Below are positions 1,000 through 2,022 of a stretch of 33,768 nt of DNA, one piece after another. This DNA is from a virus. Position numbers and translations under genes: made by a program. The notes beneath the pieces were generated by a model. The model did no database searches. It was not told where the DNA came from and was given only the letters and a program-made list of their open reading frames with translations. Where the stretch lies: UHGV virus genome UHGV-0181805; one strand, written 5' to 3'. Every line of letters begins with the position of its first letter. The stretch's first letter is position 1.

Positions 1000-2022
1000 T
1001 TGGAATGCAAAATGAATTGGAAAAGGATAAACTCAATATCATTTTTAAGAGTGTTTTCAATATTATCAATAGTAATATATCATCTATCTCGCGCCTCAAT
1101 AGATGCCGGATTCACTCCATCCATGTCGCATGAAATGGATATACTATCAATGCTTGGAGTTTCGTTTTTCATTATAATTTCAGGTGCATCATTAAATGTA
1201 AGCATGAAAAAGAACAGATCTACGCTTGATTTTTTCAAAAAAAGAATTAAATCTATATATATACCATTCTGGACTGCATATATAATAGTATCAATATTAC
1301 TGTATCTGTCACGTGGAAGGATTTCTTTAGGAACTGATGTATACAAACTCCTCTTAACGTTTTCAGGGATGGACGGATGGCTTGGGTGGAGAACGCAAAC
1401 ATATTACTTGATTGGAGAGTGGTTTACAGGATTTATTTTAATATTGTACTTATTCGCTCCGTTGATATTTATTGGAGTAACAAAAAACAAATGGATTATG
1501 CTGTCCTTATCTTTTGTTGTGAGCTTTTTTTCTTACAATTTTAATGATGATCTACGGAATTATATAGATATATTAAATCCAGTATCAATGTGGAATCCAG
1601 GAACTCGATTATTTGAATTTGTTTTTGGATTTATAATTTATGATTATATATTAGGTGATAAAAAAACAAGAATATCATTATTTATGATATCATTATTTAT
1701 TTGTATAGCTTATATCCTATCACCAAAAATAATAATAAACACTTATGTTTTTGTTCCTTTTTTCATTGCCATGTTTTGTTTTATTTCTATTGTTTATGAG
1801 TCAATAATAACTTCAGATTCAGTAAACAAAAAAATAGAATATGCATCAGGATTTTCATTTTTTGTATTCTTGTTTCATCATATAATTATATATGAAGCAT
1901 ATGATTATGGGATAATAAATTACAAAACAGATTTCCAATTCTATTTTGGATTCATTTCAATTATTGTTTTGTGTGTTTTGCTTTCAAAGCCAGCGATGTT
2001 AATATCATCTCGATTTAAATAA
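1000..2022 (+). CDS. Acyltransferase-3 family integral membrane protein (O-antigen acetyltransferase-like, serotype-conversion candidate)
   Basis: 340 aa, about 10 hydrophobic segments; N-terminal ...FLRVFSILSIVIYHL resembles the acyltransferase-3 R/H motif; markedly AT-rich versus neighbours; occupies the Sf6 oac-type position between tailspike and att. Confidence 0.65.
   Translation: MECKMNWKRINSISFLRVFSILSIVIYHLSRASIDAGFTPSMSHEMDILSMLGVSFFIIISGASLNVSMKKNRSTLDFFKKRIKSIYIPFWTAYIIVSILLYLSRGRISLGTDVYKLLLTFSGMDGWLGWRTQTYYLIGEWFTGFILILYLFAPLIFIGVTKNKWIMLSLSFVVSFFSYNFNDDLRNYIDILNPVSMWNPGTRLFEFVFGFIIYDYILGDKKTRISLFMISLFICIAYILSPKIIINTYVFVPFFIAMFCFISIVYESIITSDSVNKKIEYASGFSFFVFLFHHIIIYEAYDYGIINYKTDFQFYFGFISIIVLCVLLSKPAMLISSRFK

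Follow-up and report, generated by a model that had tools for sequence, protein, structure and literature searches.

What an AT-rich gene for a membrane protein does between the attachment site (att) and the tailspike gene of a P22-like temperate phage is the question raised by the left end of the virus genome UHGV-0181805. The whole stretch of 33,768 nucleotides that was analysed is called here the window. On its + strand, at 1012-2022, lies the gene for an acyltransferase-3 (AT3) protein, which converges with a tailspike gene. A first reading made from the letters only (the sequence-only reading) had suggested that the AT3 protein modifies the O-antigen recognised by the tailspike, giving superinfection exclusion and a serotype change. 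The analysis described here leads us to consider it probable that this prophage-borne enzyme acylates the O-antigen receptor of the adjacent tailspike and is encoded by a lysogenic-conversion gene. The general principle, a prophage O-antigen-modifying acyltransferase in its classical slot, is known and is textbook matter; what is new is an uncharacterised, divergent AT3 lineage that travels with the receptor-binding domain of a tailspike.

The open reading frame (ORF) is intact and encodes 336 amino acids, with its stop at 2022. Its start had been placed at a TTG at 1000 and has to be corrected to the ATG at 1012, because this is the start annotated by RefSeq in identical copies and the N-termini of all homologues, of the form M-N/x-x-K-R-I, match it. 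The N-terminal acyltransferase-3-like motif noticed in the sequence-only reading turned out to belong to a match over nearly the whole protein: in a Pfam search residues 7-325 align with positions 2-325/326 of the acyltransferase-3 profile at 103.8 bits (cut-off 31, E 1.3e-29), and PHROG 3333, 'O-acetyltransferase', also matches. It is the single Pfam domain of a stand-alone AT3 protein, with no SGNH or other domain; neither an NCBIfam naming model nor a solved structure detectable by sequence was found for it. The multi-pass membrane topology that had been proposed is borne out by an AF2 model built from 30 homologues (pLDDT 90.7, pTM 0.90), which is all-helical with about 10 membrane helices. 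When the model was searched against the PDB for similar folds, the top 11 matches were all HGSNAT (prob 1.00, TM ~0.55) and were the sole convincing ones, a result that fits the recent proposal of a TmAT superfamily uniting AT3 and HGSNAT (PMC12423673).

The catalytic signature of the family is present except for one arginine. The R-X10-H motif of transmembrane helix (TMH) 1, absolutely conserved in the family and represented by Arg14/His25 in OafB (PMC9833829), is found as R13, invariant among the 30 homologues (25-42% identity), and H24, conserved in at least 90% of them. The FxxxxG motif of TMH2 (F53, G58) and the Gly of TMH6 (G206), as these motifs are defined in PMC12423673, are invariant or nearly so across the same set. 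The RXXR motif at the cytoplasmic end of TMH3 is replaced by the sequence K76-K77-R78-I-K-S81, in which R78, the first Arg of the motif, is invariant in the clade and K76-K77-R78 is conserved.

The relatives of the protein are few and distant. A megablast search of the phage collection found no close relatives, and a tblastn search against 50,697 INPHARED phage records gave only three weak matches, at most 28% identical and from uncultured phages; Sf6 was not among the tblastn matches. Nine of 2.9 million IMG/VR contigs encode a clade member. Among 1.84 billion cluster representatives, searched exhaustively, only 25 proteins reach E 1e-30; beyond the protein's own cluster the nearest is 38% identical, and a word-index search returned one relative at 42% (P0003). 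Judged by sequence, the protein belongs to a small and uncharacterised AT3 sub-clade with R-x-x-S instead of RXXR. Many clade relatives (P0047, P0048, P0052, P0057, P0060 and others) are 530-560 residues long and have an extra N-terminal region of ~200 residues, and a few of 770-905 residues carry C-terminal extensions.

Comparison with characterised enzymes places the protein closest in organisation to Sf6 Oac, the 2-O-acetylase of O-antigen rhamnose encoded by gene 15. Both are AT3-only proteins of ~335 residues, both genes lie on the opposite strand to the tailspike gene, convergent with it and beside int, and both proteins have the R-X10-H motif, the SG motif and the first Arg of the TMH3 motif; the presumed logic, masking of the tailspike receptor, is also the same. 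The two differ in that Sf6 Oac has R75 and R76 where Lys80 and Ser81 stand here, in GC content (0.42 in Sf6 oac and 0.28 here), in the attachment site (argW in Sf6 and a lambda-type site at ybhB here) and in the receptor-binding domain of the Sf6 tailspike, which is unrelated to that of the window. Identity is about 20% and was reached by profile comparison only; orthology to Sf6 Oac was rejected, the best BLASTP value being E 0.012 over 51 residues and the hhalign probability 88% at 20% identity. OafA and OafB (the latter being family II GtrC of Salmonella prophage BTP1) are also prophage- or island-borne AT3 proteins that acetylate O-antigen and block a P22-like tailspike, and they have in common with the protein studied here the AT3 fold of 10 TMHs, the TMH1 residues and the first Arg of the TMH3 motif. 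However, they are AT3-SGNH fusions with an 11th TMH and a periplasmic SGNH domain, whereas the present protein ends at 336, after the 10-TMH core. Sf101 OacB, SfII OacD and PhiV10 Oac are likewise AT3-only and serotype-converting, from temperate phages of Escherichia coli and Shigella, but they are not close relatives (at most 28% in the tblastn search of phage records). Human HGSNAT (8VKJ, 8JKV), the best solved match, shares the transmembrane presentation of acetyl-CoA to an extracytosolic sugar; with 13-15% identity, an extra luminal domain and a different substrate, the kinship stands at superfamily level only.

The genomic position of the gene is that of a classical conversion gene. The tailspike gene, at 2111-4495 on the - strand, encodes 794 residues with a P22 Head_binding domain, and it is convergent with the AT3 gene, as the sequence-only reading had noted. 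Its residues 1-112 (4160-4495, - strand; Pfam Head_binding E 2.4e-66) form the P22-type head-binding domain, a backbone-specific adaptor, and its N-terminal 145 residues are 79% identical to Sf6 gp14; residues 113-794 (2111-4159, - strand) comprise the receptor-binding and C-terminal part. In Sf6 the tailspike gene (14) is followed by oac (15) and int (16), both encoded on the opposite strand, and next by attP; the AT3 gene indeed occupies the same slot, between int/att and the tailspike of a P22-like temperate phage and convergent with the latter. A gtrABC cassette, the alternative occupant of this slot in P22-like phages, was rejected, the AT3 gene being the sole substantial ORF between att and tailspike, beside IS debris and a remnant of int. 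Lederbergviruses often carry a modification gene behind the gene of the receptor-binding protein (PMC10408124), and acetylation of the O-antigen by Sf6 Oac and by BTP1 OafB blocks the tailspikes of the phages that encode these enzymes (PMC9558356). Of 5,426 complete E. coli genomes, three have the identical gene (503440, 503829 and TW10573), always in the order argW-intS-AT3-tailspike, an arrangement present also in many draft assemblies; the ybhB context seen in the window recurs on one metagenome scaffold (L015).

The evidence that links the enzyme to the receptor of this particular tailspike is comparative. Across 13 loci with varied P22-like backbones the AT3 protein does not vary (100% identity) and the receptor-binding part hardly does (99.6-100%), while the head-binding adaptor ranges from 83 to 100% and the neighbouring ant/arc/mnt/gp16 genes differ; a 1,218-bp AT3 segment is 100% identical in 10 of the 13. 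The association reaches beyond podoviruses. A siphovirus-like contig (L151), with tape measure, DUF1833 and NlpC/P60 genes and a tailspike of different adaptor (PF18668), shares positions 893-3920 of the window at 94.5% nucleotide identity, that is, the upstream region, the AT3 gene, the intergenic hairpin and the tailspike from about residue 192 on; its AT3 protein is 97.3% identical at the amino acid level and its receptor-binding part 88.6%. Diverged forms of the two genes are also found side by side, as a second allele pair in the same arrangement: in L005/L006, again downstream of an int gene, the AT3 protein is 42% and the receptor-binding part 50% identical, and in the prophage at argW of E. 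coli EC26 the values are 38% and 58%. Homology of L005 to the window resumes exactly at 893, which makes this position a recurrent module boundary. No AT3 gene was found in the lytic or non-integrating-looking phages with related tailspikes (the SU10-like L153 and the ERF/SSB phage L152). Distant members of the AT3 clade, too, are frequently convergent with tail-fibre genes, in myovirus prophages (L023, L158 and L163). The AT3 gene and the tailspike receptor-binding domain are thus co-inherited across phage backbones and diverge together, and this co-inheritance and co-divergence of sequences lend independent comparative support to an enzyme that would act on the receptor of the tailspike. We also propose, tentatively, that the two may form a co-evolving 'recognise-and-mask' cassette (~893-3920), with at least two matched allele pairs, that would be swapped whole via conserved flanks among unrelated temperate phages (P22-like podoviruses at argW or lambda-type att, and a siphovirus-like phage whose adaptor domain is different).

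The left part of this unit is the AT-rich region upstream of the AT3 gene (893-1011, + strand), its recurrent left boundary, where the homologies of both L151 and L005 begin. The AT-richness of the gene that had first attracted attention is genuine, with GC 0.279 and GC3 0.232 against 0.439 in the tailspike gene and 0.486 in the rest of the window. Low GC is also found in the diverged AT3 alleles (0.278 in L005 and 0.335 in EC26), so that it is a property of the lineage, beyond recent import alone.

From these data and from analogy with OafB and HGSNAT the following mechanism can be envisaged. The protein would be a stand-alone TmAT/Acyl_transf_3 enzyme of the inner membrane, expressed from the prophage as a lysogenic-conversion gene. 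Acyl-CoA, probably acetyl-CoA, would be bound at the cytoplasmic face, and the acyl group would pass through a pore lined by R13, R78 and F53/G58, with the thioester brought to H24 close to the periplasmic face. The O-unit or the polymer would then be esterified at a sugar hydroxyl, the target being most likely the polysaccharide bound by the adjacent tailspike. In AT3-only enzymes one domain is assumed to carry out both transport and transfer, a point that is unresolved in the field (PMC9558356). Steric hindrance of the phage's own or related tailspikes would lead to superinfection exclusion and to fewer virions lost on lysogen debris, and the O-antigen epitope would be subtly altered.

Which O-antigen this might be is suggested by the carriers. 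Strains 503440 and 503829 are enterotoxigenic E. coli (ETEC) of serotype O148:H28, sequence type ST94 and lineage L8 (PMC6446980 Table S1). A homologue of the receptor-binding part, at 51% identity, is labelled E. coli O148. Strain B7A, of the same serotype and lineage, has a P22-like prophage at argW with a tailspike 77% identical to that of the window (~90% over the first 540 residues), and the gap between its int and tailspike genes measures 81 bp and contains no acyltransferase, so that it offers a natural empty slot. Because a temperate phage must have adsorbed to the strain that it lysogenised, the simplest interpretation is a tailspike family specific for the O148 O-antigen and an enzyme that modifies this antigen; with two of the three complete-genome carriers being O148:H28, the O148 O-antigen is our best guess for the target. 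The O148 O-antigen is a Rha-Rha-Glc-GlcNAc repeat, close to that of Shigella dysenteriae type 1. The title of Feng et al. 2007, a reference given in PMC7685785, confirms the relationship between the two, not the structure. No literature on O148 O-acetylation or on the AT3 gene described here was found. In conventional serology 503440 is recorded as 'O1/O148:H28' and in silico as O148:H28, 503829 and the non-carriers being plain O148 (PMC6446980 Table S1); the 'O1/O148' record may or may not be related to O-antigen modification.

Several points weigh against an enzyme that acylates the receptor of the tailspike. The second position of RXXR is Ser81 here and Ser or Asn clade-wide, and R76 of Sf6 Oac, the counterpart of Ser81, has been reported to be critical (PMC3467182). 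It must be taken into account that RXXR is called 'highly', not absolutely, conserved (PMC9833829) and that the first Arg alone is conserved across most of the TmAT superfamily (PMC12423673); since the substitution is clade-wide and K76-K77-R78 is conserved, we read Ser81 as a lineage trait and not as a lesion. As to expression, promoter-like hexamers at 941-970 and 964-993 are candidates only: matches in the promoter scan were no commoner than in shuffled sequence and no promoter is claimed. A gene of 28% GC might moreover be subject to silencing by H-NS. Public data contain frameshift alleles. When the A5 tract at 1725-1729 is shortened by one A, the product is exactly the 239-residue 'partial acyltransferase' P0002 (10 member sequences), and in the IMG/VR contig L072 a 1-nt indel is found, the protein match ending at residue 274, at the A7 tract 1828-1834. 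The gene contains eight A/T runs of 6-7 nt, and the homopolymer frameshift alleles may reflect real on/off switching or sequencing error; a GATC cluster, indicative of Dam/OxyR phase variation as in gtr operons, was not seen on reading 893-1011. With regard to the receptor, the AF2 model of the tailspike (13 sequences, pLDDT 49.8) was too poor and was not used for a fold search, and no enzyme class was derived from it; neither Pfam nor AF2 thus gave the class of the tailspike, and its binding to O-antigen rather than to capsule is what we infer. The link to O148 comes from two of the three complete-genome carriers, 503440 and 503829. The carriers still type serologically as O148; because they still agglutinate as such, any change of epitope would not be a change of serogroup. 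Finally, the biochemical activity, the acyl donor, the acceptor sugar, expression in the lysogen, the effect on adsorption and superinfection exclusion are all inferred.

Among the other explanations, the one that survives best is the acylation of another glycan, such as capsule (K antigen), enterobacterial common antigen (ECA, as by WecH), the lipopolysaccharide core, osmoregulated periplasmic glucans (OPG) or peptidoglycan, or the transfer of a group other than acetyl. AT3 proteins act on all such glycans, and some of them add succinyl or longer groups (PMC9558356); the sub-clade stands far from characterised O-antigen acetylases (at most 28% identity in INPHARED and 20% to Sf6 Oac) and its RXXR motif is altered, and the substrate of the tailspike is given neither by Pfam, which has no match for residues 113-794, nor by the poor AF2 model. 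Nevertheless, the tight co-inheritance and co-divergence with the receptor-binding domain points to the receptor of the tailspike, O-antigen is the typical target of P22-type tailspikes in E. coli and Shigella (PMC10408124), and the enzymes acting on ECA, OPG and peptidoglycan are encoded by chromosomal housekeeping genes and not by tailspike-linked morons. Hence we regard this explanation as unlikely, with capsule still a possible receptor.

It could also be argued that the gene benefits the host, through immune evasion, resistance to serum or bile, or resistance to unrelated phages, rather than excluding phages of its own type, and that its linkage to the tailspike gene follows merely from the use of a moron slot. 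Clade members do occur elsewhere: some lie beside P2 GPA or gpU or at prophage ends at icd or ssrA, and one belongs to a polysaccharide island of Erwinia that is not of phage origin. Furthermore, the AT3 gene is flanked by insertion sequence (IS) debris, as would be expected of opportunistic insertion. However, the boundary of the shared unit takes in the receptor-binding domain and not the adaptor, and does so in three phage types; likewise, each of two diverged AT3 alleles is paired with a diverged receptor-binding allele, and slot occupancy alone does not predict such pairing. Host benefit instead of own-type exclusion seems to us quite unlikely, although the two are not mutually exclusive. 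That the gene is an inactive or silenced passenger without a phenotype, as Ser81, the 28% GC, the lack of a promoter above chance and the alleles truncated at the A5 and A7 tracts might suggest, is highly improbable in view of the intact ORF with its identity over 1218 bp in most of the 13 loci, the exact protein in 220 blocks of public assemblies, signature residues kept in homologues down to 25% identity, a Ser81 common to the clade, and an AT3 protein more conserved in the siphovirus-like contig (97%) than the receptor-binding part (89%).

If the enzyme acylates the O-antigen bound by the tailspike, several consequences can be considered. O-acylation of O-antigen by prophages changes phage susceptibility and antibody recognition and is invisible to genome-based serotyping. 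Should the target be O148, some ETEC O148:H28 strains would differ in epitope within one lineage, for example 503440 and 503829 from B7A, which would be of relevance to O-antigen-based vaccines against ETEC and Shigella and to the prediction of host range from tailspikes for phage therapy. The matched AT3/tailspike allele pairs constitute a natural system for the specificity of receptor masking, and the R-x-x-S clade gives a way to probe the need for the second Arg of RXXR in AT3-only enzymes.

The receptor-binding part of the tailspike deserves some additional comments. No Pfam family was found in residues 113-794, and the only PDB sequence match in the receptor-binding part (residues 113-532, 2900-4159) is to an unnamed 'tailspike depolymerase', 24qj (residues 268-421). 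Residues ~533-794 (2111-2899) constitute a C-terminal module of ~250 residues with a conserved SGADYAEY motif and no Pfam family. Tail proteins from phages and prophages of Janthinobacterium, Sphingomonas, Massilia and other bacteria end in this module, at 30-40% identity, and a role as an assembly domain or as one of intramolecular-chaperone type is possible. Scans of genome and viral collections with the tailspike alignment mostly retrieved this module, in phages of unrelated hosts, and not the receptor-binding part.

Within the 88-bp spacer between the AT3 and tailspike genes lies a perfect inverted repeat of 14 bp with a loop of 9 nt (2051-2087, stems 2051-2064 and 2074-2087), kept in L151. 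The repeat was missed by the terminator scan, its loop being outside the range of the program, and was folded directly instead: compared with shuffled sequence, the hairpin has a dG of -23.4 kcal/mol (z -4.6) on the + strand and -17.4 (z -2.6) on the - strand. It is AT-rich, with a passable U-rich tail on the + strand only. The shared bidirectional terminator that had been proposed here is therefore a real hairpin between the two genes, whose action in both directions is only plausible; as a candidate terminator it is convincing for the acyltransferase gene and doubtful for the tailspike gene. In B7A (L010) a GC-rich hairpin, AAAGCCTTGCA...TGCAAGGCTTT, lies at 5352-5432 between the convergent intS and tailspike genes, and a different GC-rich hairpin separates the AT3 and tailspike genes in L005. 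A hairpin between the convergent genes is a constant feature, its sequence not being conserved.

On the other side of the AT3 gene the window reaches into the bacterial chromosome. Positions 1-268 (+ strand) are the 3' end of ybhB, of the PEBP family (Pfam PBP E 1.7e-15, and annotated as ybhB in matching E. coli genomes). The window is identical to K-12 through position 372, and homology to the empty K-12 attB stops inside TTAGTATAAAAAAG, the lambda core; the att core of the window, TTAGTATAAAAAAGT at 359-373, is identical at 14 of 15 positions to the reverse complement of the lambda core, with the bacterial/prophage junction at 372/373. The attachment site placed beside the gene by the sequence-only reading is accordingly real, its junction lying ~640 bp from the gene, and it is of lambda type at ybhB and not, as in Sf6, at argW. 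Lambdoid phages (434, mEp332 and others) match positions 355-670 at 88-97% identity, in the region annotated there as 'O core of attP'. The prophage end, 373-669, corresponds by this similarity to a lambdoid attP-arm region. Its last 87 bp (583-669) double as the 3' end of an IntS-type integrase gene: the 3' end of Sf6 int matches 583-659 at 98.7% identity, and in strain 503440 the sequence from 583 on forms one continuous stretch with a complete intS. The window represents a variant of the Sf6-type arrangement, its int-proximal end being joined to a lambda-type att module via the 583-669 homology patch. This patch is the meeting point of the att-lambda module and the Sf6-type int-AT3-tailspike module, and it might act as a bridge for recombination among phages with different integration sites. 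An IS1-mediated rearrangement bringing the P22-like prophage to ybhB was ruled out, as many E. coli genomes with P22-like prophages at the lambda-type att keep the same 1-669 end beside ybhB.

The IS debris between this end and the AT3 gene (710-892) consists of a transposase fragment of the ISL3 family (~80% identical) at ~710-850, followed by the terminal 40 bp of IS1 at 853-892, which match exactly the end of the IS1A annotated in L003. The ISL3 fragment, without the IS1 end, is also found upstream of the different AT3 allele of E. coli EC26 (L155). In E. coli PCP07083 (L003, 7829-11767) a prophage at ybhB/att-lambda carries two different acyltransferase-family genes near tail-fibre genes and has an intact IS1A at its junction. 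AT3 genes seem to have a hotspot at the att-proximal end of prophages inserted here. Far from this end, two tRNA genes of the phage, tRNA-Thr(UGU) and tRNA-Asn(GUU), are located at 22211-22366 on the - strand, where the prophage has its late-regulatory/lysis region.

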